Of a stretch of 64,000 bases of DNA, positions 330 to 47,891 are shown piece by piece. The notes beneath the pieces were generated by a model. The model did not search any database and was not told the origin of the DNA. It was given only the letters and a program-made list of their open reading frames with translations. Within the stretch, counting starts at the first letter, position 1, and the number at the start of each line of letters is the position of its first letter. This stretch comes from Nitrospirales bacterium (GTDB taxonomy: Bacteria > Nitrospirota > Nitrospiria > Nitrospirales > UBA8639), in assembly GCA_965207835.1 (NCBI GenBank), contig CBDBNQ010000002.1, forward strand, positions 1,713,224 through 1,777,223, written 5' to 3'. The position numbers and the translations under genes were made by a program.

Positions 330-716
330 TCACCAGAGCCGGCGAACGCCGTATTGATCGAAGAGTTTCTCAATCGAGATGAGGACCAAGTTGCCGGACA
401 ATGCCTGCGCGATGAGCATTCTATCGAATGGATCGCGAATAGGATCAGGCAACGCGCCGGCGCGGGCTGCGTCCTCCACGGTTATTGGCAGTTCTTCGAA
501 GTTTTGTCCGGCTATTGCCCCGCTGATGTCGAGGGCTAGCTCCTCTGCCTCAGGGAGTTTGCCTAGCCGATGTTTGGTGGCGATCTCCCATGCCGACGCC
601 GCACTGATCAGCACGTCATTCGTCTCATCCACAATCGTCTGCCGCACCTCTTCAGACAGGCGTCTGCTGTCCGTAAACCACCAGAGAAACGTATGAGTGT
701 CCAACAGCGCCCGCAC
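330..716 (-). CDS. vapC: PIN-domain toxin, VapC family
   Basis: 128-aa ORF with an N-terminal LLDTHxFLW PIN-type start and conserved acidic residues. Starts 3 nt after the stop of the upstream antitoxin ORF. Confidence 0.85.
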   Translation of the reverse strand: MRALLDTHTFLWWFTDSRRLSEEVRQTIVDETNDVLISAASAWEIATKHRLGKLPEAEELALDISGAIAGQNFEELPITVEDAARAGALPDPIRDPFDRMLIAQALSGNLVLISIEKLFDQYGVRRLW

Positions 717-718
717 CG

Positions 719-952
719 CTATTCACCTTCCCATGCCTTCAATTCTTCCTCCGGTAGCGGATCGGAGAAACTGTCTGGAATGACGATCTTGCCTTTGAAG
801 ATGTCGGGCTGCCGCTTGCCCCGTTTTTGGACGCGGACGAGCCGGGCCACCGGCGTGCCGCTACGGGCGATAACGACTTCCTCCCCTGCCTCGACTTGCG
901 CAAGCAGGCGTGACAGGTTGGTTTTGGCTTCATGGACATTCACTTTTACCAT
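719..952 (-). CDS. Phd/YefM-type antitoxin paired with VapC
   Basis: 77-aa ORF. The N-terminus MVKVNVHEAKTNLSRLL..GEEVVI is typical of Phd/YefM antitoxins. Tightly coupled to the PIN gene. Confidence 0.8.
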   Translation of the reverse strand: MVKVNVHEAKTNLSRLLAQVEAGEEVVIARSGTPVARLVRVQKRGKRQPDIFKGKIVIPDSFSDPLPEEELKAWEGE

Positions 953-1066
953 CGCCGGCTCCTTGCTGACGTTATTAGCTAACAGTATGGCTAAGCATGG
1001 GGCTTGTCAAGCGGAGAGCGGTACGTTTCAGTTGCTGGAGTTGTCTCAGATCTGGAAATTTGTGGC

Positions 1067-1324
1067 TTACGTCAGCACTTCGAGTAGCGTTCCGGCGAAT
1101 GTTGCTTCCCCGATCAGTCGATCTTTCTCGGAAGCGATGTCAGATTTTCCCGACGTACCAAGATCGAAGACGATGGAACGGTCAATATTTCGTGGGGACT
1201 CAGCCAAATCCCGGTCCACCAGTCGACGGATATATTCGGCAAGTGAAACGCCAAGCTCAGCAGCACGCGCACGCATTCGTGTGTGCAACTCGGAATCGAA
1301 AGATATTTGCGTTCTAACCATCAT
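1067..1324 (-). CDS. Ribbon-helix-helix (CopG/MetJ-like) small protein, no adjacent toxin
   Basis: Internal ATG of track ORF 1067..1963. The 85-aa product begins MMVRTQISFDSELHTRMRARAAELGVSLAEYIRRLV (RHH pattern). The rest of the long ORF is antisense to hsdR and judged spurious. Confidence 0.55.
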   Translation of the reverse strand: MMVRTQISFDSELHTRMRARAAELGVSLAEYIRRLVDRDLAESPRNIDRSIVFDLGTSGKSDIASEKDRLIGEATFAGTLLEVLT

Positions 1325-1393
1325 TATGTCGCTACCATACTGTCTGCTTAATGGCGTATCAAGGTATTTCATGATGCTCATGGAGGGCATCTC

Positions 1394-4357
1394 GTGAGCG
1401 ATCTCAAGATTAGCGAGGCTGCCTCGGTCCAGTTCCCCATGGTTCGTCACGCGGCGGAGGTCGGCTGGATACCGCTCCCGCCGGAAGTGGCGATGCATAA
1501 GCGTGGCGGCGAGGCCGGCATGCTGTTCCGGGACGAACTCGAAGGCGCACTTGGACGGTTCAATCCCTGGATGACGGACGACGTCATCCGTTCCGTAGTT
1601 GAGAGGATCGAGGCGATCCCTCCGGCCATCGAGGGGAACCGCGAGATGCTGGCTTGGTTGCACGGCGAGCGGCAATGGTACGACGAGGATGAAAAGCGTC
1701 ACCGGCGCGTCCGGCTCGTCGATTTTGAAACGCCGAATGCCAACGTCTTTCACGTCACCTGGGAGTGGAAACTCAAGCCCCCGGCCCGTAAGGGCAACCG
1801 GGCGGACGTGATGTTCGTGATCAACGGTGTGCCGGTTGCCATCGTCGAGCACAAGAACCCCAAGGACGCCGATGCCATCGAGCGGGCCGTCACACAACTG
1901 CGACGCTACGAGATTGAGACCCCCGAGTTGATAGCCTCGCCGCAACTCTTCAACGTCACGCACCTGATCGAATACTGGTACGGCGTCACCTGGAATGCGT
2001 CGCGCCGGTACATGGCGCGTTGGAAGGAACGGCCCGAGGAAAGCTACCGGTTTGCCGTCCAGTCGTTCTTTGAGCCTACCGATTTTCTGCGCACGTTACG
2101 GGACTGGGTTCTCTTCTACGTCGAGGACGGTGAGACCAGAAAGTCGGTGCTGCGGCAACATCAGCGCCGCGCCATCGACCGTATTGTTTCCCGTTGCGAG
2201 GAGCCGGCGAAGCGCCGCGGGCTCATCTGGCATACGCAGGGTTCCGGCAAGACCTTTACGTTGCTCACGGCCGCGCGCCTGATCCTGGAGCGCGCGGACC
2301 GGTTCCGCACACCGACGGTCGTCGTGGTCGTGGACCGGATGGAGCTTGAAGGGCAGCTCAAGGGTTGGGTTGAGCGGCTGCTCGGCGAGATGCAGCAGCA
2401 GGATATCGCGGTCTGGCGCGCCAGTTCCAAAGCCGAACTCCGGGATCTGTTTGAAACCGACACGCGCGGTCTGATCCTTTCGATGATTCACAAGTTCGAG
2501 GGCATCGAGAAGGACGCCAATTCCCGGGACAACGTCTACGTGTTTATCGACGAGGCGCACCGGTCGGTGGCCAAGGATCTGGGCACGTACCTGATGGCGG
2601 CCTTGCCCAACGCGACGATTATCGGGTTCACCGGCACGCCGATCGACAAGACGGCCCAGGGCGAGGGCACGTTCAAGATCTTTGGCACTGACGATGAATT
2701 GGGTTATCTCGACAAGTACACCATCGCCGAGTCGATTGAAGACGAGACGACGCTGCCGATTCACCACACGATGGCCCCGAGCGAGATGACGGTGCCGGCG
2801 GAACGACTCGACAAGGAATTCTTCGCCCTGGCCGAATTCGAGGGCGTCACGGACGTTGATGAACTCAATAAAGTCCTTGATCGAGCCGTCGGTCTGCGCA
2901 CGTTCCTCACTGCTGATGACCGGATCGAGAAAGTCGCGGCGTTTGTGGCCGCGCACTTCAGGGAGAACGTGGACCGGCTCGGCTATAAGGCGTTTCTCGT
3001 GGGCGTGAACCGGGAAGCCTGCGCCAAGTACAAGCGCGCGCTTGATAGGCTGCTGCCACCCGACTGGACCGCGCCGGTGTATACGGAAAACGTCAACGAC
3101 GTGGTGGAGCGTCCGCTGGTCGCTGAACTTCAGCTTTCCTCGGAACGCGAGGAGGACGTGCGTCTCATATTCAAGCGGGCAGGTGAGAATCCGAAAATCC
3201 TCATTGTCACCGACAAGCTGCTGACGGGCTATGACGCGCCTCTTCTGTATTGCATGTATCTCGACAAACCGATGCGCGATCACGTGCTCTTGCAGGCGAT
3301 TGCGCGCGTGAACCGCCCGTACGTGGATGCAACCGGCACCCGCAAGCGCATCGGTCTCGTGGTCGACTTCGTCGGGGTGTTACGCGAGTTGCGGAAGGCG
3401 CTCCGGTTTGACTCCACGGATGTGAGCGGCGTGATTGAAGATCTCGATCTGCTGCTGGCTGACTTTTTAGACAGGATCGAGCGGGCGAGAGCGGACTACC
3501 TCGCCGGAAAAGGAAGCGACGCTGCTGACGAGCACCTTGAGGATATTGTCTACGGACGTTTCCTGGACCCGGAGCCGCGCAAGGTGTTCTTTGAGACTTA
3601 CAAGGAGATCGAGGCGCTTTGGGAAATTCTCTCGCCTTCACCCGAGCTTCGCGATCATATCGTGACGTACAAGCGGCTTGCGCAACTCTATGCAGCCGTT
3701 CGGAACGCCTACACCACCAGGGTCAACTACGTGATAGACCTCGCCAACAAGACGCGCTCGCTGATCCAAGATGGTGCCGTTCAGCAAGGCCTCGGCTACC
3801 TGACGAAAACCGTCACGTTCGACGTGAACACCCTCGAAGCGCTTCGAGGTGAATCAGGGTCCGACGAGGCCAAGGTCTTCAACCTTGTGCGCGGCCTTCG
3901 ACGAGAGATCGAGGAAGATCGGGATTCGGCGTCCGTGCTGAGACCACTGAAGGAGCGCGCAGAGCAAGTCCTGAAGGATCTGGAGGAGCGGAAGACGACC
4001 GGGCTCGCGGCAATGGATCTGCTGGCCGACATTGCCAGGGAAAAGGAAACGGCTGTCAAGGCGGCGAAAGAAAGTGGCCTCTCGCCGCGTGCATTTGGCG
4101 TGTATTGGACACTGAAGAACGATCCGGGCTTCGAAACAACCGGCATCGCAGCCATGGATTTGGCGAAGGAAACGGAAGATCTTCTCACGCGCTTCCCTAA
4201 TGCTGCTGTCAACCCCGATGAGCAACGGCGTCTGCGCATGGTTCTTTATCGACTGCTTCTGGGACTGGATAAGGAGGAACGGAGCCGTGTCGTGAAGCTC
4301 GTCCTCTCAATACTTTTGGGTGAAGGCGCCGATGCGGACGAACGACAAGCGACGTGA
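1394..4357 (+). CDS. hsdR: Type I restriction enzyme R subunit
   Basis: 987 aa. Has an N-terminal HsdR nuclease-type region ([16 protein letters not shown]). SF2 motifs are present: HTQGSGKT Walker [13 protein letters not shown] box, [29 protein letters not shown] lies upstream of a GTG start. Confidence 0.9.
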
Positions 4358-4634
4358 GTTCATTCGCACCCGCGTTATCTACTGGGCGCAACGACTGAAA
4401 GTCCGTCCGCGCTTGGTCCGGGTTCAGCATATGACGCAAAAGTGGGGCTCATGTTCCACGTCGGGCACCGTGACCCTGGCATACGACCTGGCCGATAGGG
4501 AATTGAGCTTCCAAAATTTTGTCATCGCGCACGAACTGCTCCACCTTCGCGTGCCCAACCACGGCAAACTTTTCAAGGCATTGATGACGGCTCACGTGCC
4601 TGACTGGAAAAGACACGATGTCAACAGGCAGTAG
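4320..4634 (+). CDS. Short DUF45/YgjP-like zinc metallopeptidase
   Basis: 104 aa with a KWGSCS motif and an HELLHL zinc-binding motif. Overlaps the hsdR 3-prime end, a frequent partner position. Shorter than my recollection of typical family members. Confidence 0.7.
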
Positions 4635-8803: not shown

Positions 8804-9733
8804 ATGAAAGGGTCTGTGGCGTTGGTGAAAATGATGAGTGCCGTGTGTATCCTCCTGTTGGTACAGGGTCCCTCTGTCCCTGCGCAGGGTGGAGGATCAA
8901 GCGAACCCACGAAAACGATCATCGGTGACTTGCTGGACGTGGACCGGGACTTCTACATCGTGCGAGGCGAACGGGGCGAGATTCAAATCGAAGCCACACA
9001 CAAGACCGAGATCACGGAAGAATTCGGATACGGCGACCGCATCAAGGCCTTGGTGCTGATGAACAACAAGGCGTTGAAGATCGAGCGCGCCGGACCCGAT
9101 GACGTGACGGGCGTGACGGAAAACCTGCCGGTCACAGCGCAAGTCTCTGAAGCCCAACAAGACGCCAAGGGGGAAGCTCCTGCGCCGGCCGCACAACCCA
9201 AGCAACCAGAATCCAAAACCATTGTGGCCGATCTGCTGGACGTTGATCGTGATTTTTACATCGTGCGGGGCGAACGGGGCGAGATTCAAATCGAAGCCAC
9301 GCACAAGACCGAGATCACGGAAGAATTCGGATACGGCGACCGCATCAAGGCCTTGGTGCTGATGAACAACAAGGCGTTGAAGATCGAGCGCGCCGGGCCC
9401 GATGACGTGACGGGCGTGACGGAAAATGTGCCGGTCACCGCGCAAGCGCCTGTAGCTCCAGAGGGCGGTAAAGAGCAAGCCCCTGCGGCCCCGGCGCAGC
9501 CGAAGCAACCGGAATCCAAAACCATTATTGGCGATCTGCTGGACGTTGATCGGGATTTCTACATCGTGCGGGGCGAGCGAGGCGAGATTCAAATCGAAGC
9601 CACGCACAAGACCGAGATCACGGAGGAATTCGGATATGGGGATCGGATCAAAGCGAAAGTCCTCATGAACAACAAGGCGTTGAAGATCGAGCGCGCCGGG
9701 CCGGATGACGTGTCGGGGGTCTACACGGAATGA
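8804..9733 (+). CDS. Secreted protein made of three ~101-aa tandem repeats, unknown function
   Basis: 309 aa. Has a signal-peptide-like N-terminus (MKGSVALVKMMSAVCILLLVQGPSVPAQG). The unit KTI(I/V)(G/A)DLLDVDRDFYIVRGERGEIQIEATHKTEITEEFGYGDRIKA.VLMNNKALKIERAGPDDV occurs three times, joined by Pro/Ala/Gln linkers. Confidence 0.75.
   Translation: MKGSVALVKMMSAVCILLLVQGPSVPAQGGGSSEPTKTIIGDLLDVDRDFYIVRGERGEIQIEATHKTEITEEFGYGDRIKALVLMNNKALKIERAGPDDVTGVTENLPVTAQVSEAQQDAKGEAPAPAAQPKQPESKTIVADLLDVDRDFYIVRGERGEIQIEATHKTEITEEFGYGDRIKALVLMNNKALKIERAGPDDVTGVTENVPVTAQAPVAPEGGKEQAPAAPAQPKQPESKTIIGDLLDVDRDFYIVRGERGEIQIEATHKTEITEEFGYGDRIKAKVLMNNKALKIERAGPDDVSGVYTE
8912..9712. repeat. Three tandem 303-bp repeats inside the CDS
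   Basis: Repeat units start at 8912, 9215 and 9518, an exact 303-bp period. The cores are nearly identical at the nucleotide level. Confidence 0.9.
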
Positions 9734-18785: not shown

Positions 18786-19325
18786 TCATGGGTGATGCCT
18801 CCAATCAAAACGAACTTCAATCTCCCGCAGCATGTCAAACGTATCCTGGTAAATGACGCCGAACTGTCGGCAAACGTTGGGTAGAGGCACTCGTTTCTTT
18901 ACATCCGGGTTGAATTTCTCCTGGGTAACCACGGTTGCGTTATGTCCCTTGGCGTAGGCGGCAACCCACCCATCGGCTACTCTTGCGAACTCCGCTTTTG
19001 CGTCAGGTCGAAATTGGTCATTTCTTCGGACCCAGTCCATCATTTCCGCGAAAGCATCTACGACCGACTGCTCTGCTGATGATATGAAGAGATCGTTTGG
19101 TGCATTTTTCACCCACTCGGCCAACTTGTCTGGAGTATCCTGATTATTTGGCCCTTCCATCAATTCAGCACGAACCCGATCTATACTCAACATTCGTCTC
19201 TCTTGGCTATAGTGTGTCAGGCATTCCCAGAAACCGGGGCACAGGTCTTGCGCGTAGTAGCGACGGTGTGCCTCTATGAAGATGTTCGTATCTAACACAA
19301 ACAACTTTTGCGCGTGGTTCATCAA
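18786..19325 (-). CDS. DUF4411-like (PIN-like fold) protein
   Basis: 179 aa. FVLDTNIFIEAHRRYY...FWE...ADGWVAAYAKGHNATVVTQEK...VPLPNVCRQFGV matches my recollection of the DUF4411 pattern. Confidence 0.65.
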   Translation of the reverse strand: MMNHAQKLFVLDTNIFIEAHRRYYAQDLCPGFWECLTHYSQERRMLSIDRVRAELMEGPNNQDTPDKLAEWVKNAPNDLFISSAEQSVVDAFAEMMDWVRRNDQFRPDAKAEFARVADGWVAAYAKGHNATVVTQEKFNPDVKKRVPLPNVCRQFGVIYQDTFDMLREIEVRFDWRHHP

Positions 19326-20494
19326 AGTAGCATGCTCATCTTTTTCGGCATTCTTTCAAAGGTATCTCCTTTCAGGCCGGTGAGGCTATACGCTTCACGA
19401 TAGAGCAGTCGCCCTTCTTTGACCGCGCGGATGATTGCGGTGCCAAAGCGTGGGCCTATGCGCCATTTCTGGGTGTTCCAAAAATCGCCGCCGTCTGCTT
19501 GGTCCTGTTGTCGGCTGTGCCATTCAGTGTCCTGATATTCCTGATAGAACCTGAAGAATTCATCCTGATCGATTAAATCGAGATCAAGGGCACGACGCGC
19601 TGCCACAAGAGAACTGACTTTGAAGTGACGAGCAATCGCCTGATAACGATCATTCGCTTGCTTGGCGGTATGCCAGAAATTGTTTAAATCGTCCTTCGGT
19701 ACCAGAAATTCAGCAGCCGCCTGATTGCAGAAACGCTCTGTGGCATGGGGCGCTGGCTGCAAGTTTTGGAAAATGGATACACCTGTCTCTCCCACAAAGA
19801 GGTGTGCCAGTTCGTGGGCGAAAGTGAACATCTGCGCTGCCTTGAAGTCAGCGCTATTTACAAAGATAAGTGGAGCATACTCGTCAACGAGAGCAAAACC
19901 TTGAAACTCATCAGAGGCTAGCTTGCGTCGCGTGTTGTTTCCCACGATGCCATTGAAAACCACCAGGACACCGGCATCTTCTGCTTGATCCCGTAGAACC
20001 TTAAGCGCATCCGTCCAAGTGGACACTTGCGAGGCCCAGTCGTGGGACAGTTGCAATGCCTCACGCATGGCAGCAGCGACTTGCCGTGGATGTGCATCAA
20101 TTCTGTAGGCTCCAACGAAGTTCAGAGGTGCGGCGTCATCTTCAATGAGTTCATCGCGCATCCAGGCCTGCCGTCGCTGCATAATCTCCACGGTTTCGAG
20201 AAGGTCTGGACTCGGCCGCGGCGGTGTGTCATCGCTTCGGGTCCGGAAATCAGGTATTGGCAAGTGGTCCTCAGGTGGTTCTGTTAGGTACAGAAAACCC
20301 AGAGGGGTATGGGTACGTTGGGCAAGCCTATCTGCCTGGGCAACACTGATCCTACCGGATTGTTCCCACTCCAAGACGCGTTCTGGTCTCACCTGCATCT
20401 TTTGGGCAAGTTCATCCTGGCTGACGCGCAGTCGCTCTCGTGCCCATCGCAACACGTCAGGCTGCAACGTTATCTTCAAGCCTCGGCTACTCAT
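19322..20494 (-). CDS. XRE-type HTH fused to ImmA/IrrE (COG2856) zinc metallopeptidase
   Basis: 390 aa with an N-terminal HTH (RVSQDELAQKMQVRPERVLEWEQ) and an HELAHL zinc motif. 4-nt overlap with the downstream DUF4411 gene. Confidence 0.8.
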   Translation of the reverse strand: MSSRGLKITLQPDVLRWARERLRVSQDELAQKMQVRPERVLEWEQSGRISVAQADRLAQRTHTPLGFLYLTEPPEDHLPIPDFRTRSDDTPPRPSPDLLETVEIMQRRQAWMRDELIEDDAAPLNFVGAYRIDAHPRQVAAAMREALQLSHDWASQVSTWTDALKVLRDQAEDAGVLVVFNGIVGNNTRRKLASDEFQGFALVDEYAPLIFVNSADFKAAQMFTFAHELAHLFVGETGVSIFQNLQPAPHATERFCNQAAAEFLVPKDDLNNFWHTAKQANDRYQAIARHFKVSSLVAARRALDLDLIDQDEFFRFYQEYQDTEWHSRQQDQADGGDFWNTQKWRIGPRFGTAIIRAVKEGRLLYREAYSLTGLKGDTFERMPKKMSMLL

Positions 20495-20780: not shown

Positions 20781-21278
20781 TCACTGGAGTTTCTCAGCTA
20801 ACACTTTTTCCGTTTGTTTTCTGCGGTACTCTACCAACCGTTCTTTGATCCCCGAATCTTCGAGGGCCAGAATCGCGGCGGCGAAGAGGGCGGCATTGGA
20901 CGAGCCGGCTTCACCGATGGCCAGGGTGGCGACGGGAATGCCCTTGGGCATTTGGACGATGGAGAGCAGGGAATCGAGACCTTGCAGCGCTTTGGATTGC
21001 ATGGGTACACCCAGAACCGGCAAGGTCGTCTTGGCCGCAATCACGCCCGGCAGGTGAGCCGCGCCGCCGGCGCCTGCGATCATGACGCGAATCCCTCGTG
21101 ACTCGGCTTGGCTCACGTATTCGAATAAGGCATCAGGAGCCCGGTGAGCGGAAATCACACGACATTCATTGGCAATGCCAAGCTGCGTCAACGTCTCGCT
21201 GGCCAACCGCATGACGTCCCAATCGCTTTTACTACCCATCACAATGCCGACTAACGGCGTATCGTTTGCTGAAGCCAC
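20781..21278 (-). CDS. purE: 5-(carboxyamino)imidazole ribonucleotide mutase
   Basis: 165 aa with [15 protein letters not shown] and [10 protein letters not shown] motifs. Confidence 0.92.
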
Positions 21279-21418
21279 GAGCGTTCCTCCTTAACCGAAA
21301 TGGGATCGTGAAAGTGGAGCGTTTCGGAAACTCCTTACTGACAGGACAAGAGTGTACTGACTCGTCATTTCATTTACAATCTCACGAGCCGGGTGAATCG
21401 ACACGAGAAAAGATGGAC

Positions 21419-21520
21419 ATAGCAGGACATAGCAAAAAAATAGCAGAAACATAGCATTGGCATAGCATAATCATAGCAGAGTATAGCATAAGCATAGCAT
21501 TGATATAGCAAAACATAGCT
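21419..21520. repeat. Array of ten ATAGCA motifs at 10-11 bp spacing
   Basis: Motif starts at 21419, 21429, 21440, 21451, 21462, 21473, 21483, 21494, 21505 and 21515 (the last is ATAGCT). AT-rich island within a GC-rich genome. Confidence 0.85.
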
Positions 21521-21780
21521 AACTATAAGTACATATAATCGTAAGGCAGAACATAGCGTGAGATGGCGTTCAGGGTCATGTATCGCAATGATTTGCGGAT
21601 GCGGCCTGTTAAGAACGAACATGCCAGGGCACGGTGAACACACGGGCCGAACGGCTGGATGTGCTGGAGTCTAACTCATTGACGTGCAAAGGGTTTTGGT
21701 GCCCGTGTGCAGGAGAACGGCTTGACTGAATGGATGAGAGCCTGTAAATGTTTCATCATTCGTTGATAGGATAATCGGTC

Positions 21781-21863
21781 TACCTCCCCTTGCCCCTCCT
21801 TACAAAGGAGGGAAATGAAGAAGTTCCCTCTCCCCCGGCGGTAGAGGGTTAGGGTGAGGGGGG
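21781..21863. repeat. REP-like intergenic repeat cluster
   Basis: Contains CCTCCCCTTGCCCCTCCTTACAAAGGAGGG plus TTCCCTCTCCCCCGGCGGTAGAGGGTTAGGGTGAGGG modules. Confidence 0.6.
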
Positions 21864-21932
21864 AATGGCCGACGAATGCATGAACACATACAATGACAGC
21901 TTGGGCGCGTCTCCCGGATTGAGGCATTTTTT

Positions 21933-23240
21933 ATGACGGAAGCATTTCCCCTTCGATTACTGGCTCCGCTCGATGGTGAGCCGTGGGATATTGACGGCTA
22001 CGTCAAACGCGGCGGGTATGAGGCGTGGCAACAAGTGATTCGGGACGCCGACCCCGACAGGGTGATTGGTGAGTTGAAGCGAGCGAGTCTGCGAGGCCGG
22101 GGCGGAGCCGGATTTCCGACGGGCTTGAAATGGGATAAGGTCGTGCATCACCGGGAGACGGAACGATATTTCGTCTGCAACGCCGGCGAGCATGAGCCGG
22201 GCACGTTCAAAGACCGGTACCTTGTCGAGCACCACCCGCATCAGTTGATTGAAGGATGTTTGATCGCGGCCTTTACCATTGGTGCGCGGGAGGCCTACAT
22301 TTATTTGAACGCTGAATTTCTGGCAGCCCGGGCGAGTCTGGAAAAGGCCTTGGAGCAAGCCAGGACACGTGGATTTCTCGGCCAAAACGTTCTGGGGTCC
22401 GGGATGGACCTTGAATTGGAGATTTTTGAAGGGCATGGAAGTTACGTCGCCGGCGAGGAAACCGCGATGTTGGAGTCCATGCAGGGTCGTCCGGCGCAAC
22501 CAAAGGAAAAGCCGCCGTTTTACCCCACCGAGTTCGGGCTTCACGGAAAACCGACCCTGGTGAACAACGTCGAAACCCTGTCTCACGTGCCGCACTTGTT
22601 GCGCAATGGGGCGCAATGGTTTACGGCAGTGGGTGCGGAAAAGAGTCCAGGAACCATGTTGTTTTCGTTGAGCGGGGCCGTCAATCGTCCGGGCGTGTAT
22701 GAATTGCCTTTGGGGACGCCGTTGCGCCATCTGATCGAAGAATGCGGAGGAGGCGTTCCACATGGCCGCGGGCTCAAAGCCATCTTTCCTGGGGGACCGT
22801 CCTTTGCCATGATGGGGCCTGAAGCCTTGGACCTGCCCATGGATTTCGATGCCTTGAAGCAGGCCGGGACCGGGTTGGGGTCGGCCGGGGTGATTGTCGT
22901 CGATGATGCCACCTGTATGGTGGGTCAGACCCTCAAGCTCTCAACGTTTTTTCGGGAGGAAAGTTGCGGGCAATGTCCGCCCTGCAGGATTGGGACGGAG
23001 CATCTGGAAGAACTGGTGGCGAAAATCGAGGAGGGGAACGGGACACGGGAAGATCTGGATAAACTCTTGCAGATTTGCGGGTTCGTCAAAGGCACGGGCT
23101 ATTGCACGTTGGTGACGGGCGCCGCCGTCCTGGTCCAAAACAGTCTTCGGCTGTTCCGGCACGAATTCGAGGAGCACGTCGCCAAGCGAGCGTGTCCGTT
23201 TCATCCGACCGCCACGGAACCGGCGATTGCCGTGGGGTGA
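21933..23240 (+). CDS. NuoF-like NAD(H)/FMN-binding [4Fe-4S] flavoprotein (complex I 51-kDa subunit family), stand-alone
   Basis: 435 aa with GRGGAGFPTG, GEHEPGTFKDR and ESCGQCPPCRIG motifs. No nuoE or nuoG neighbours. Confidence 0.85.
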   Translation: MTEAFPLRLLAPLDGEPWDIDGYVKRGGYEAWQQVIRDADPDRVIGELKRASLRGRGGAGFPTGLKWDKVVHHRETERYFVCNAGEHEPGTFKDRYLVEHHPHQLIEGCLIAAFTIGAREAYIYLNAEFLAARASLEKALEQARTRGFLGQNVLGSGMDLELEIFEGHGSYVAGEETAMLESMQGRPAQPKEKPPFYPTEFGLHGKPTLVNNVETLSHVPHLLRNGAQWFTAVGAEKSPGTMLFSLSGAVNRPGVYELPLGTPLRHLIEECGGGVPHGRGLKAIFPGGPSFAMMGPEALDLPMDFDALKQAGTGLGSAGVIVVDDATCMVGQTLKLSTFFREESCGQCPPCRIGTEHLEELVAKIEEGNGTREDLDKLLQICGFVKGTGYCTLVTGAAVLVQNSLRLFRHEFEEHVAKRACPFHPTATEPAIAVG

Positions 23241-23250
23241 GTGATTCCTG

Positions 23251-23598
23251 ATGCCACGTGTCACCTTTATTCATCCTGAAGGCACGAGCGGAGAGGTTCC
23301 GGAGAACGTTTCCCTGCTTGATGCCGCTGAGCAGTTGGGGTTTCCACTCAATCACGATTGCGGGGGGAGCGCCTCGTGTTCGACCTGCCGCGTCGAAGTG
23401 ATTATGGGCGGAGAGCATTTGTCCGAAATAGATTTTGAAGAGCAGGACCTGCTCGATCGCGAAGCATTAACCGAATCCTATCATCGTCTGAGTTGCCAGG
23501 CCTTGATCCTGGGAGACGTTGTCGTGCAGGTGCCCGAAGAAAAATGGGCGTCTGCGGCTGCCGATCAGCCGGACTCCTCGAATGCCACAGAAAGTTGA
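23251..23598 (+). CDS. [2Fe-2S] ferredoxin (adrenodoxin/putidaredoxin-like cysteine spacing)
   Basis: 115 aa. CGGSASCSTCRV plus a distal LSCQ cysteine. Confidence 0.8.
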   Translation: MPRVTFIHPEGTSGEVPENVSLLDAAEQLGFPLNHDCGGSASCSTCRVEVIMGGEHLSEIDFEEQDLLDREALTESYHRLSCQALILGDVVVQVPEEKWASAAADQPDSSNATES

Positions 23599-33627: not shown

Positions 33628-33814
33628 AAATTTTTCTGTCATCCTTGCGCACGCGAGGAACCAGGGTCTTTATCCTTACGAACGGCGCAAGAAAGAAAGA
33701 CCCTGGATCCCCGATCAAGTCGGGGATGACAGCAGGGGAATAACCGTAAGTCGGGTTGGCCCTTCGACTACGCTCAGGACAGGCGTAGCGTAACCCGACA
33801 GCGTGCCTTCTATT
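33521..33814. repeat. Direct repeat copy 1 (last 107 bp of glnS plus downstream REP-rich spacer)
   Basis: 294 bp, ~284/294 identical to 36745-37038 by my count. Confidence 0.9.
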
Positions 33815-36744: not shown

Positions 36745-37038
36745 AACGGCAAGGCTATTTTTGCGTCGATCCCGATTCGACCGGCCAACGGCTCGTATTC
36801 AATCGCACCGTCGCCCTCCGCGATTCCTGGTCGAAACTCGAAAAGCAATAAAAATTTTTCTGTCATCCTTGCGCACGCGAGGACCCAGGGTCTTTATCCT
36901 TACGAACGGCACAAGAAAGAAAGACCCTGGATCCCCGATCAAGTCGGGGATGACAGCAGGGGAATAACCGTAGGTCGGGTTGGCCTTTCGACTACGCTCA
37001 GGACAGGCGTAGCGTAACCCGACAGCGCGCCTTCTATT
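36745..37038. repeat. Direct repeat copy 2 (non-coding duplicate of the glnS 3-prime end plus spacer)
   Basis: See copy 1. Ends at the metF stop codon. Confidence 0.9.
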
Positions 37039-41818: not shown

Positions 41819-41841
41819 ACTCCTCTCCTTCGGCCCTTTCC

Positions 41842-41960
41842 CGTCATCCCCGATTTCTCCTTCTGTCATCCTCGACATTTTTAATTGAGGATCCAGTGTC
41901 TTTGTTTTTGTATTTCTCCCTCTCCCGCTGGAGAGGGCAGGGGTGAGGGGAGGGGCGAAA
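41842..41960. repeat. REP-like intergenic repeat cluster
   Basis: Contains GTCATCCCCGAT..., GTCATCCTCGAC...GAGGATCCAGTG and CTCCCTCTCCCGCTGGAGAGGGCAGGGGTGAGGGG modules. Confidence 0.6.
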
Positions 41961-47409: not shown

Positions 47410-47619
47410 ATGATGAGGCTCGCTGCTTATTTGCTGTTGGTATTGCTATGTTCAGTTGTATTGGCGGTCCCGGTGTTCGCTCAGTCTGGGTCTGGGAGTG
47501 CTGTATATGGCATGGTTCAGGAAGATCCTGCACCTGCTCCTGAACCCTGTACGCCTGCTCCCGATAAACCCTGTCCTGAACCGGAACCGGAACCGGAACC
47601 GGAACCGGAAAAGTCATAA
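47410..47619 (+). CDS. Small secreted Pro/Glu-repeat protein
   Basis: AAGGAGGGAG RBS, then MMRLAAYLLLVLLCSVVLAVPVFAQ signal-like sequence, then a PEPEPEPEPEPE tail. Followed by a strong terminator. Confidence 0.55.
   Translation: MMRLAAYLLLVLLCSVVLAVPVFAQSGSGSAVYGMVQEDPAPAPEPCTPAPDKPCPEPEPEPEPEPEKS
47581..47610. repeat. (CCGGAA)5 hexanucleotide tandem repeat within the CDS
   Basis: Five perfect units, preceded by CCTGAA. Confidence 0.9.
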
Positions 47620-47660: not shown

Positions 47661-47754
47661 ATTCTTTCCCCGGCCCCTTCCTCCAAGTCTCGCAGGCATG
47701 TCTCTGCCCCTGAGCAGGGATCGCGTGGACAAAGGCAAAGCAAAAAGCAAAGAC

Positions 47755-47891
47755 GCTGGATCCTCGATTAAAGATGTCGAGGATGACAGAAGGGGGGAAA
47801 GCGCCCTCACCCCGGCTCTCTCCCGGAGGGCGAGGGTGAAAAAAAGAGAAAGGCCCTCTACCTCCCCTCGCCCCTCCTTACAAAAGAGGGG
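47755..47891. repeat. REP-like intergenic repeat cluster
   Basis: Contains GGATCCTCGATTAAAGATGTCGAGGATGAC, GCCCTCACCCCGGCTCTCTCCCGGAGGGCGAGGGTG and CCTCCCCTCGCCCCTCCTTACAAAAGAGGGG modules. Confidence 0.6.

Follow-up and report, generated by a model that had tools for sequence, protein, structure and literature searches.

Within the window, by which we mean the whole stretch of 64,000 nucleotides from a Nitrospirales bacterium that was analysed, a gap of 654 bp separates purE from a divergently transcribed gene for a NuoF-type subunit, and this gap contains a phased array of ten short repeat units (Table 1). A scan of the intergenic region for consensus promoters and terminators gave no excess over shuffled controls; the two putative promoters in Table 1 are taken from cross-species conservation and not from that scan. 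The block assigned to purE on the basis of consensus and conservation is invariant in all five array-bearing orthologues, its AGTGT.C is also invariant in array-less relatives, and the nearest array core starts 39 bp upstream of the presumed -35 hexamer. The putative nuoF-like operon promoter is situated about 200 bp downstream of the array; all seven aligned loci have CTTGAC there without change and a -10 region that is mostly invariant, with the array-less loci L160, L161, L162 and L164 reading CTTGACG ... TATAGT. In these four loci the purE/nuoF intergenic region is 300-500 bp long and carries no array, and the array together with its immediate surroundings is missing in relatives that retain purE/nuoF synteny; the array was thus gained in this clade. 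Target-site duplications were not recognisable at the boundaries of the inserted stretch. The hairpin module to the right of the array is 83% identical to positions 4116-4200 of locus L042, where it adjoins the L042 array; it is a separate dispersed repeat, not part of the array, and is often found beside arrays at other loci.

Table 1. Features of the purE/nuoF intergenic region and its flanks (positions in the window)
Feature	Position	Strand	Remarks
purE (AIR carboxylase; Pfam AIRC)	20781..21278	-	left neighbour, transcribed away from the array
Putative purE promoter	21351..21379	-	-35 TTGTAA (21379-21374), 17-bp spacer, -10 TACACT (21356-21351)
Clade-specific insertion (approximate)	21385..21608	.	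array plus ~35 bp on the left and ~90 bp on the right; boundaries approximate (from alignment)
Phased array, ten units	21418..21520	+	shares its anatomy with 48 arrays from 14 Nitrospirales MAGs
Core starts in the array	21418, 21428, 21439, 21450, 21461, 21472, 21482, 21493, 21504, 21514		
Decayed units right of the array	21552..21587	+	CATAGCG 21552-21558; TATCGCA 21581-21587
Putative promoter of the nuoF-like operon	21722..21750	+	-35 TTGACT (21722-21727), 17-bp spacer, -10 TAAATG (21745-21750)
GC-rich REP-type hairpin module	21779..21865	.	CCCTCTCCC...GGTAGAGGG then GGGTGAGGGGGG
NuoF-type FMN/NADH-binding subunit gene	21933..23240	+	Complex1_51K, SLBB, NADH_4Fe-4S; right neighbour
2Fe-2S ferredoxin gene	23251-23598		after the NuoF-type gene

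A first-pass annotation of this DNA had described ten copies of ATAGCA in helical phase. Direct reading and a pattern search bore out the positions and the spacings (10, 11, 11, 11, 11, 10, 11, 11 and 10 bp), with nine exact copies at 21419, 21429, 21440, 21451, 21462, 21473, 21483, 21494 and 21505, but the tenth copy, at 21515, reads ATAGCT. Seven of the ten ATAGC copies are preceded by C, and the cores comprise six CATAGCA, two TATAGCA, one AATAGCA and one CATAGCT, separated by spacers of 3-4 bp that are A-rich for the most part and no two of which are alike (TTGG, TAAT, GAGT and TAAG are among those that are not A-tracts). Elsewhere in the window ATAGCA occurs only ten times on both strands together, and the Poisson probability of finding at least nine copies in 92 bp at this background rate is 1.4e-25. 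Tandem Repeats Finder (TRF) reports an 11-bp period with only 73% matches. On the right-hand side, the two decayed units are off the register of the array and are kept among four array-bearing orthologues; CATCGCA-type variants are the most frequent decayed unit across the whole array family. The array was said to be AT-rich and non-coding, and it is: its GC content is 34.6% compared with 56.7% for the window, with a strong strand asymmetry (A 46%, T 19%), and the overlapping 89-aa open reading frame (21374-21643, minus strand), earlier dismissed as an artefact, is indeed one, as it has no Pfam match, a GC3 of 0.43 as opposed to 0.65-0.75 in real genes, and a frame disrupted by whole-unit indels of 10-32 bp among orthologues.

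Exact database look-ups of the PurE and NuoF proteins of the window returned no match, and relatives were found through pattern and protein scans. A scan of public genomes, seeded with three perfect cores 10-11 bp apart and extended into chains with an ATAGC anchor in steps of 9-12 bp, detected arrays of the same type at at least 27 chromosomal sites in 14 sponge-associated Nitrospirales MAGs, with at least seven arrays on a single chromosome of 2.5 Mb. These MAGs belong to lineage IVb and are Ca. Nitrosymbion-like. Among 118 genome and 40 viral matches, true arrays are limited to this Nitrospirales group; the viral contigs carry ordinary tandem repeats with identical units that are unrelated to the family, as do the genomes from outside the Nitrospirales, and in a degenerate 10-bp minisatellite of another organism (L057) the core decays as well. 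The search for further phased arrays proposed in the first-pass annotation thus succeeded, and it showed that the array, described there as a feature of the purE/nuoF region, recurs at unrelated intergenic sites.

The arrays are without exception intergenic and lie between divergent, tandem and convergent genes; some stretch from one stop codon to the other across a convergent gap, leaving only 8 and 15 bp to spare. Their neighbours include xthA, pvlArgDC, genes for a DHH phosphoesterase, a rhomboid protein, AcrB-type, DyP and TonB-receptor proteins, HsdM and HsdR, the thiC neighbourhood and others, and a function common to the array-flanking genes was looked for and not found. A loose, unquantified excess of restriction-modification and defence genes (HsdM, HsdR, DUF4143, TIR-like, PIN) was noticed near the arrays. 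Plotting array orientation against chromosome position in two complete genomes gave no clear replichore pattern, with small numbers and an origin that was not located. At some loci the arrays contain units of mixed orientation, inverted terminal units or perfect palindromes CATAGCATGCTATG. The array-bearing genomes are also rich in other short dispersed repeats, which the arrays often abut, and a Y1 (IS200/RAYT-like) transposase gene is present at one related locus.

Across the family the arrays consist of 4-17 units. Among 49 arrays, 46 spacings of 9 bp, 142 of 10 bp, 161 of 11 bp and 22 of 12 bp were counted, and the position matrix of the units shows C at 83%, then ATAGC (the search anchor), A at 95% and subsequently 50-65% A, where the choice of seed and chaining inflates the apparent invariance of the core and narrows the range of spacings. 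The mean spacing is 10.43 bp, the period per array is 10.43 +/- 0.16 bp, and phase coherence is maximal at 10.4-10.5 bp. Consecutive spacings show a negative correlation (r = -0.49, n = 289): a step of 9 bp is never followed by another 9, nor a step of 12 bp by 11 or 12. Shuffling the order of the spacings raises the RMS deviation from the lattice from 0.50 bp to 0.62 bp, and none of 2000 shuffles came down to the observed value. Spacing errors are thus compensated, and a 10.4-bp lattice places all cores on one side of the duplex, so that the one-face phasing first noticed at purE/nuoF applies to the family as a whole. The 427 units include 397 that are distinct, and a unit matches its neighbour exactly in only 9 of 378 adjacent pairs, in contrast to 52 of 82 in tandem repeats of unrelated taxa that match the same pattern.

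Conservation among relatives, which had been suggested as a check, was found at purE/nuoF in four other species, with arrays of 7, 11, 12 and 13 units, and ten array sites are common to two or more species. A comparison of ten orthologous pairs gave mismatch rates of 5.1% for cores, 28.2% for spacers and 16.0% for flanks; the core is thus about five times better conserved than the spacers, a comparison in which aligners favour placing core on core, and about three times better than the intergenic flanks. Indels between orthologous arrays are whole units (10, 11, 21, 23 and 32 bp). The first-pass annotation had named high length variability among close relatives without an effect on expression, and a common minisatellite scattered through the genome, as grounds against functional significance, and both are nominally seen here. 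All the same, a neutral minisatellite is hard to reconcile with the non-integer lattice, with an invariant core next to free spacers and with positions that are retained from species to species, and the two signs are therefore poor discriminators. A simple minisatellite or VNTR is likewise at odds with the mixture of 9- to 12-bp steps, the scarcity of identical neighbours and the confinement of variation to the spacers.

A broader version of this idea, which we regard as unlikely but consider seriously, is a selfish or neutral dispersed repeat of the MITE, BIME or minisatellite kind that spreads and grows by slippage or recombination and has no role for the host, its core being conserved by the needs of the copying machinery or merely by recent common descent. 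The ends of the arrays fit such an origin, as end modules are conserved at non-orthologous sites of one genome: shared left ends include a junction at which ...GCTTTGCGGAAC runs directly into ATAGCA and an 88-bp left module, and shared right ends read CATAGCAATGCGATGTTTGCACGAG or ...caagccttttgtctcc. So do the insertion at purE/nuoF that is missing in syntenic relatives, the gain and loss of whole units, the crowding of the genomes with other dispersed repeats and the single Y1 transposase gene. However, slippage by integral units cannot yield a 10.43-bp lattice with compensating steps of 9 and 12 or 10 and 11 bp, and homogenisation unit by unit would homogenise the spacers too, whereas nearly all units are distinct. 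Furthermore, cores are more conserved than neighbouring flanks, arrays at separate sites show baseline mutual similarity except for their ends and are thus not recent copies of each other, position is kept across species at ten sites, and the L057 minisatellite loses its core along with the rest. An element spreading through shared end modules could nevertheless persist without host function.

In several respects the arrays resemble REP/BIME elements, which in E. coli are bound by architectural proteins: they are lineage-specific, intergenic and modular, present in many copies of variable number, partly kept in position in related species, and, like REPs, often found at the 3' ends of convergent genes. 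REPs, however, are imperfect palindromes of 20-40 bp that form hairpins, whereas the array units are 7-bp direct repeats on a helical lattice with no potential to form hairpins.

A curvature prediction, also proposed in the first-pass annotation, yielded a strong bend. In a wedge model with parameters after the published Bolshoy/Trifonov table, the arrays are provisionally predicted to average 85 degrees per 100 bp compared with 23 degrees for random windows (99th percentile 60 degrees); the purE/nuoF array is predicted at 70 degrees per 100 bp, above the 99th percentile of the controls, and all 33 arrays that were analysed (56-149 degrees per 100 bp) exceed the 95th percentile. The arrays might act through structure alone, as phased A-tract bends at a plectoneme apex or in a curved upstream element that needs no dedicated binder. 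We consider this improbable, in spite of A-rich spacers phased at 10.4 bp, a strong predicted bend in every array, the occupation of every kind of intergenic setting, as expected of a topological element, and the precedent of the plasmid R1 parC site, which is intrinsically curved as well (PMC2241845). A-tracts would suffice for curvature and leave the near-invariant CATAGC, with C at position -1 (83%) and A at +5 (95%), unexplained, as they do the palindromes and the inverted terminal units at some loci, and many spacers are not A-tracts. The arrays share with phased A-tract clusters the intergenic location and the runs of about 100 bp of A-rich DNA in helical phase, but such clusters lack an invariant word other than A, which the arrays possess.

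The strand asymmetry could also point to an element acting as RNA, in which transcribed CAUAGCA (or UGCUAUG) would sequester or attract an RNA-binding protein, as repeat RNAs of the CsrB/RsmZ or TRAP type do. Consistent with this, in about 11 of 16 site groups the array and the gene upstream of it share a strand. Several arrays, moreover, begin 6-28 bp past a stop codon and would be part of a 3' untranslated region. We nevertheless hold this to be very unlikely. A compensating helical lattice is a property of duplex DNA; the arrays have no set orientation with respect to their neighbours, as they run antisense to purE, xthA, the gene for HsdM and that of the candidate protein described below; and some arrays hold both orientations. 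Flanking promoter and terminator pairs were not seen, with hardly any room for them in the convergent gaps, and the purE/nuoF array lies upstream of both putative promoters. An Rfam search of the window and 18 related loci detected tRNAs only, and a known structured RNA family is rejected in the absence of a covariance-model match.

An equally slight chance is left to a local operator of purE or the nuoF-like operon, or to the origin iterons of an integrated replicon, readings largely refuted by the distribution over many sites: the array does sit between divergent promoters, close to the putative -35 of purE, and is kept there in five species, but the same arrays accompany many unrelated genes, both promoters are retained in array-less relatives, a PurR-type palindrome is absent, plasmid genes were not found nearby (and neither rep nor par within several kb), and no plasmid-like skew or composition island was seen in the window.

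More specific identities fare no better. PurR operators are 16-bp palindromes of the type ACGCAAACGTTTGCGT in E. coli and paired PurBoxes at pur promoters in Bacillus; neither is present in the array, as the failure of the first-pass annotation to match a PurR box had suggested, and arrays also occur at loci other than pur. Iterons, which the same annotation had considered, are typically near-identical units of 17-22 bp that accompany a rep initiator gene, together with DnaA boxes or an AT-rich unwinding element, at one locus per replicon, whereas here there are many chromosomal copies without rep gene or origin context, and units of 9-12 bp have only a 7-bp core in common. CRISPR arrays consist of identical 24-48-bp repeats that alternate with unique spacers of about the same size, in most cases with cas genes close by; the 7-bp core, the spacers of 3-5 bp and the absence of cas genes from the annotated flanks agree with the earlier dismissal of this possibility. 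By reasoning from their geometry, the units do not form sigma-70 or sigma-54 promoters either.

The explanation we favour, and to which we give about an even chance, is that the arrays are a dispersed repeat module maintained as a cooperative protein-binding platform on one face of bent DNA. This is in line with the earlier suggestion of cooperative sites or bent DNA, which the conservation of the core relative to the spacers and the predicted bend fit. A sequence-specific protein would read the CATAGCA core in consecutive major grooves, while the A-rich spacer would provide a narrow minor groove and a bend, and cooperative head-to-tail polymerisation of the protein might then produce a nucleoprotein filament or arc of about 100-200 bp; this mode of action is modelled on ParR at parC and StbA at stbDR arrays. 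Both the binding of a protein and the role of the complex are what we infer. Since the settings of the arrays comprise divergent, tandem and convergent pairs of genes with unrelated functions, the complex is more likely architectural than a pathway-specific operator, and it might serve as a nucleoid anchor, as a topological or transcriptional insulator or roadblock, or as a site for a global regulator. At purE/nuoF it would be located 40-140 bp upstream of the putative purE -35, and its distance from the putative nuoF-like promoter, to which it is also upstream, would be about 200 bp.

Short direct repeats, one per helical turn, are familiar from plasmid centromeres and operators, in which a small protein polymerises along one face of bent DNA. 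In parC of plasmid R1, ten direct repeats with an 11-bp period each bind one ParR dimer cooperatively, the DNA is intrinsically strongly curved, and the repeats flank or overlap a promoter autoregulated by ParR (PMC2241845). The arrays are similar to parC in having direct repeats one helical turn apart (10.43 +/- 0.16 bp) on one face and an overall size of about 100-160 bp, with curvature that is predicted here. They differ in that parC is a single plasmid site with fixed 11-bp spacing beside parM and parR, whereas the arrays mix 9- to 12-bp steps around a 7-bp core and occur at least seven times per chromosome with no ParM or ParR genes seen nearby. StbA of plasmid R388, a small winged-helix-turn-helix protein, binds cooperatively to one face of stbDR arrays, in which a 9-bp core and a 2-bp spacer make up one turn and 2-10 repeats are found in the promoter of StbA itself and in four others (10.1101/2022.04.29.490116). 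StbA is confined to a handful of promoter sites on a plasmid, in contrast to the chromosomal arrays, which also fill convergent gaps and reach 17 units. Neither purE/nuoF nor most of the other sites lie in the promoter of a binder's own gene with a partner motor or plasmid backbone, as is the case for ParR and StbA; at these sites the flanking genes are housekeeping genes. A further parallel is parH, the centromere of TP228, where ParG binds short degenerate boxes separated by AT-rich spacers (PMC3130281). The parH site is on a plasmid and has 4-bp boxes and an 8-bp period, compared with a 7-bp core on the chromosome.

A similar unit design is that of the pho box, the direct-repeat operator of OmpR/PhoB-type regulators. 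It comprises a 7-bp core and an A/T-rich spacer of about 4 bp contacted in the minor groove, repeated every 10-11 bp and bound head to tail by winged-helix monomers. Pho boxes, however, occur as two to four units (more in Streptomyces) at a fixed distance from the -10 in the phosphate regulon, whereas the arrays extend to 17 units and have neither a coherent regulon nor a fixed relation to promoters. An OmpR/PhoB operator is therefore rejected, since the flanking genes are functionally unrelated and arrays are also found in convergent gaps devoid of promoters.

A lead for the array binder postulated in the favoured explanation is a clade-restricted protein of about 140 amino acids, which in an AlphaFold model consists of a long N-terminal helix (coiled coil), a linker and a winged helix. 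Its orthogroup is confined to array-bearing Nitrospirales MAGs, and in all six genomes examined its gene is preceded by an array of 6-11 units at -52 to -177; it is one of about 50 array-adjacent genes. Like StbA, this candidate has a winged helix and an array in its own promoter in addition to arrays elsewhere, but it is unrelated to StbA in sequence and has candidate status only. A weak PDB sequence match to a ParD ribbon-helix-helix antitoxin (E = 0.07) was discarded in view of the winged-helix fold of the AlphaFold model. The DNA-binding domain of Rok (5zuz) is among the weak winged-helix fold matches, which at E = 0.3 is not significant. The domain plan, in which a flexible linker joins an N-terminal coiled-coil oligomerisation helix to a DNA-binding domain at the C-terminus, resembles that of Rok and H-NS, but these proteins bind AT-rich DNA broadly and not a phased 7-bp word, and the candidate is without shown homology to them. 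None of three remote homologues has an array upstream of its gene, so that they provide no independent support for the binder idea, and the putative recognition helix is conserved even in remote, array-less homologues. ParM, ParA or TubZ genes were not seen at the candidate's locus.

Taken further, the favoured explanation would lead to a chromosome-wide architectural system, in which dozens of helically phased arrays, conserved in position, are coated by filaments of this clade-specific, Rok/H-NS-like protein and act to anchor the nucleoid or to insulate transcription units from each other; the array in front of the protein's own gene would mediate its autoregulation. We put this forward only tentatively and judge it more probably wrong than right by a good measure. 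Such a system would amount to an array-binding module of the StbA/ParR type deployed at many chromosomal sites.

A literature search for CATAGCA direct repeats gave nothing relevant, and a multi-copy, positionally conserved chromosomal family of such arrays was found neither in literature searches nor in the paper describing the genus; the CATAGCA array family is thus apparently undescribed, and we know of no described case in which arrays of this kind form a multi-copy chromosomal repeat family. If a dedicated binder exists, the arrays would represent a sequence-programmed system for nucleoid organisation or insulation in an uncultured, vertically inherited animal symbiont, and would offer a route to understanding how reduced symbiont genomes organise their transcription units. 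In practice, the arrays mark genomes of the Ca. Nitrosymbion-like lineage and probably cause breaks in assemblies, and annotation pipelines call spurious open reading frames across them, as illustrated by the 89-aa frame at purE/nuoF.

The array between purE and the NuoF-type gene is a real, non-random feature of the window. The first-pass annotation had counted ten ATAGCA copies, of which nine are exact and the tenth reads ATAGCT; the CATAGCA cores start one base ahead of the positions it gave, and its start-to-start spacings of 10, 11, 11, 11, 11, 10, 11, 11 and 10 bp were confirmed by reading the sequence. Only ten other ATAGCA copies were found by pattern search on both strands of the 64-kb window, and the chance of at least nine within 92 bp at the background rate is about 1e-25. 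The stretch was also correctly described as AT-rich in a GC-rich background (34.6% GC and 46% A in the array, 56.7% GC in the window). The array lies within the 654 bp that separate purE (minus strand) from the NuoF-type gene (plus strand), and the 89-aa ORF, as had been suspected, is an artefact with no family match, low GC3 and a frame broken by unit indels in relatives.

Coordinates of the array, of two conserved blocks in the same gap and of the genes for a candidate binding protein (L numbers denote comparison loci from public genomes)
Feature	Location	Strand	Basis or occurrence
Phased array, ten units	window 21418-21520	+	direct reading and pattern search
purE-side block, TTGTAA-N17-TACACT	window 21379-21351	-	invariant in five array-bearing orthologues
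nuoF-side block, TTGACT-N17-TAAATG	window 21722-21750	+	common to five array-bearing orthologues
Candidate gene	L107 4316-4741	+	
Candidate gene	L118 7109-7519	-	
Candidate gene	L239 4001-4432		
Candidate gene	L240 4001-4429		
Candidate gene	L241 3001-3429		
Candidate gene	L242 3001-3432		

Four further array loci are 82-92% identical to the window over purE and the nuoF-like gene. One of these belongs to 'Nitrospira sp. bin75'; the GTDB genus 'bin75' is now named Ca. Nitrosymbion, a sponge-associated genus of lineage IVb Nitrospirales whose genomes measure about 2.4 Mb at 56.9% GC (PMC11812461), and the paper describing it makes no mention of repeats. Conservation of the array in relatives is partial: it is kept in five species, with 7, 10, 11, 12 or 13 units, and it is absent from four more distant relatives of the same synteny, whose NuoF is 75-82% identical and whose purE/nuoF gap measures 300-500 bp. 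This indicates that the array was gained within the sponge-associated clade, along with about 120 bp of surrounding sequence. The purE-side and nuoF-side blocks are putative promoters on the grounds of conservation and consensus, the array-less relatives reading TTGACG...TATAGT at the latter. On this assignment, 39 bp would separate the start of the array from the purE -35 element and about 200 bp its end from the nuoF-side -35 element, the array being upstream of both. Right of the array, some 130 bp (window 21590-21720), including GAACGAAC and the invariant TAACTCATTGACGT.CAA.G, are conserved among the array-bearing orthologues, and the TAA..TTGA part of this block is also retained in the array-less relatives.

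The first-pass annotation had treated the array as a local curiosity of the purE/nuoF region, which under-interprets it. The genome search it had proposed for further phased ATAGCA arrays found many. Scanning one genome per species with the pattern CATAGCA-N3-4-CATAGCA-N3-4-CATAGCA gave at least 118 matching loci, and 47 of the 118 matches listed come from 14 Nitrospirales MAGs. All listed matches outside the Nitrospirales, and all 40 viral ones, are plain tandem repeats whose units are identical and 10 or 11 bp long, or else a microsatellite of 5-bp units. The Nitrospirales loci resemble the window array, with 4-17 cores, mixed spacings and differing spacers. Grouped by flank comparison, they represent at least about 27 chromosomal sites, at least ten of which are common to two or more species, and one complete 2.53-Mb chromosome carries at least seven. 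The window array therefore belongs to a family of motif arrays in helical phase that is specific to this lineage and, as far as we could find, undescribed in the literature; its known counterpart would be the one-turn direct-repeat protein-binding array.

With units aligned on ATAGC, the preceding position is C in 83% and the following position A in 95% of units, and the 3-5 bases 3' of the core are 50-65% A without a fixed sequence; decayed units are mostly one-base variants such as CATCGCA. Spacings across the family (9 bp, n = 46; 10 bp, n = 142; 11 bp, n = 161; 12 bp, n = 22) average 10.43 bp, with a period per array of 10.43 +/- 0.16 bp. Consecutive spacings are anticorrelated (r = -0.49), and cores deviate from the lattice by 0.50 bp RMS, a fit reached by none of 2000 order shuffles. 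Such compensating spacing excludes a slipping unit of integral length but can arise where cores have to stay on one face of B-DNA. Distinct sequences make up 397 of the 427 units, neighbouring units match exactly in only 9 of 378 cases, and length changes between orthologues comprise whole units (10, 11, 21, 23 or 32 bp). In ten orthologous pairs, mismatches affect 5.1% of aligned positions in cores, 28.2% in spacers and 16.0% in adjacent intergenic flanks, contrasts whose sizes, like that of the spacing pattern, are inflated because the seed demanded three perfect cores, chains were anchored on ATAGC with steps of 9-12 bp and aligners prefer cores, and whose direction is likely real. In contrast to the Nitrospirales arrays, the kilobase-scale degenerate 10-bp minisatellites of an unclassified bacterium (contig CBDDTI010000627.1, L057 1100-6300; TGCTATGTTG, TGCAATGTTG, TGCCATGTTT and similar) show core decay as fast as that of the rest of the unit.

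The arrays are invariably intergenic, yet are found in all gene arrangements. Between the convergent genes for xthA and pyruvoyl arginine decarboxylase the array fills the entire gap in four species, leaving 8 and 15 bp to the two stop codons; in five species it lies 28 bp past a stop codon between DHH phosphoesterase and rhomboid genes; at purE/nuoF it separates divergent genes. Further neighbours are AcrB-type, DyP, TonB-receptor, cytochrome, glycosyltransferase, HsdM, HsdR, RadC and AAA-DUF4143 genes. The flanking genes form no coherent regulon, the arrays have no fixed orientation relative to them, and an Rfam search of the window and 18 related loci gave no match for the arrays. Many arrays at non-orthologous sites have ends in common: the left junction ...GCTTTGCGGAAC|ATAGCAAAATCATAGCA recurs, eight loci share an 88-bp left module, and two right ends recur, one being an inverted variant core (CATAGCA-A-TGCGATG-TTTGCACGAG). 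The family thus behaves as a dispersed modular repeat, and these shared ends, together with a gain restricted to one clade, favour a repeat element without a host role. We consider this main alternative unlikely, as the helical lattice, the better conservation of cores than of flanks and the retention of positions across species speak against it.

A few loci have mixed core orientations, including the perfect palindrome CATAGCATGCTATG. At L018 660-840 and L090 5440-5560, units in both orientations precede a type I methylase gene with a fused N-terminal XRE HTH, and the 14-bp palindrome there looks like the operator of a dimeric HTH protein. Array-bearing genomes also hold several other short repeat families. 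Dispersed short repeats occur in the window (21779-21865, 41839-41949, 47728-47793) and at many loci, among them GC-rich hairpins (CCCTCTCCC...GGGAGAGGG then GGGTGAGGGG); other modules are GACACTGGATCCCCGAT... and CCTTCGACTTCGC...CTCAGGACAGGC, and GGATT runs lie directly upstream of some arrays. Some 4 kb from the candidate gene described below, a further gene (L239 8106-8432) weakly matches Y1 transposases (IS200/RAYT-like) and may be relevant to the spread of REP-like repeats in these genomes.

Curvature was predicted with a wedge model using the published Bolshoy/Trifonov parameters, and A-tract controls, phased and unphased, served to check it. In this model the 33 arrays bend by a mean of 85 degrees per 100 bp and random windows of the same loci by 23 degrees; the window array, at 70 degrees, exceeds the 99th percentile of the latter (60 degrees), in line with the bent DNA suggested initially. 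The constrained 7-bp word, the free A-rich spacer, the helical lattice and the predicted curvature together give the look of a cooperative one-face protein array: a protein would bind the cores cooperatively along one face of the DNA, and the array would form an architectural or insulating platform. In this proposed mode of working the family would resemble R1 parC, whose two sets of five 11-bp repeats are intrinsically curved and bind one ParR dimer per repeat (PMC2241845); the arrays of R388 StbA, a small winged-HTH protein targeting 9-bp repeats with 2-bp spacers, present as 2-10 repeats at its own and four other promoters (10.1101/2022.04.29.490116); and TP228 parH, an array of about 100 bp with short boxes and AT-rich spacers (PMC3130281). 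Unlike these, CATAGCA arrays are chromosomal and multi-site, are not linked to a partner motor gene and are not limited to promoters, and this context sets them apart from the class. For the same reasons we favour such a platform over a purE operator, a reading to which we would give about an even chance. The platform and the repeat element are compatible readings, since a module may spread and also be retained as a binding site.

In a conserved ileS-nadA-X-thiC-thi4 neighbourhood, one array site lies directly 5' of the gene of a clade-restricted protein about 140 aa long. Each of the six genomes inspected (63-94% protein identity) has a phased array of 6-11 TGCTATG units at positions -52 to -177 relative to the ATG, antisense to the gene and with the inverted-core end distal; two of the six also have a proximal inverted unit. 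In a word-index search all matches had at least 63% identity, and all named ones were sponge Nitrospira MAGs. The AlphaFold model (pLDDT 69.5) predicts an N-terminal helix of 45 residues, followed by a disordered linker and then a winged helix; Foldseek gave weak matches only, every one of them to a winged-helix domain (Rok, Fur and forkhead are among these), and there is a weak HARE-HTH match. A DNA binder that oligomerises would be expected to have this predicted domain plan, and autoregulation would fit. The orthogroup is narrow (4 matches at E <= 1e-30, full HMM search) and falls inside a wide unannotated family of the same domain plan (1451 representatives at E <= 1e-3); arrays were absent upstream of three of three remote family members. 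The evidence being circumstantial, the protein is a tentative and rather doubtful candidate for the array binder. Sinobacteraceae and Binatia are among the taxa with members of the wide family, whose genes often neighbour mobile or defence genes.

Some 900 bp from the window array, two genes with a 4-bp overlap are inserted between mdh and purE (18786-20494, minus strand), one for an XRE-HTH and M78 (ImmA/IrrE-type) peptidase and the other a DUF4411 (PIN-like) gene; together they look like a toxin-antitoxin or defence module. An apparent type I restriction-modification cluster, judged by ORF sizes, lies at 570-4634 (a 987-aa ORF and a small YgjP-type ORF), and the homologous flank in the related genome OZ243914.1 (L070 5012-5400) runs into a CATAGCA array instead. 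HsdM, HsdR, DUF4143, TIR-like or PIN genes are the neighbours of several further arrays, and arrays may be linked to the borders of defence islands. Elsewhere in the window, a segment of about 110 bp occurs twice, 3.2 kb apart (33631-33740 and 36855-36964), both copies resembling short parts of L085 and L006. A 303-bp tandem repeat (8931-9717; 2.6 copies, 88% identity), also present in L070, possibly encodes a repeated protein domain, since 303 is divisible by three, and a perfect hexanucleotide repeat, GAACCG x5.5, is located at 47578-47610.
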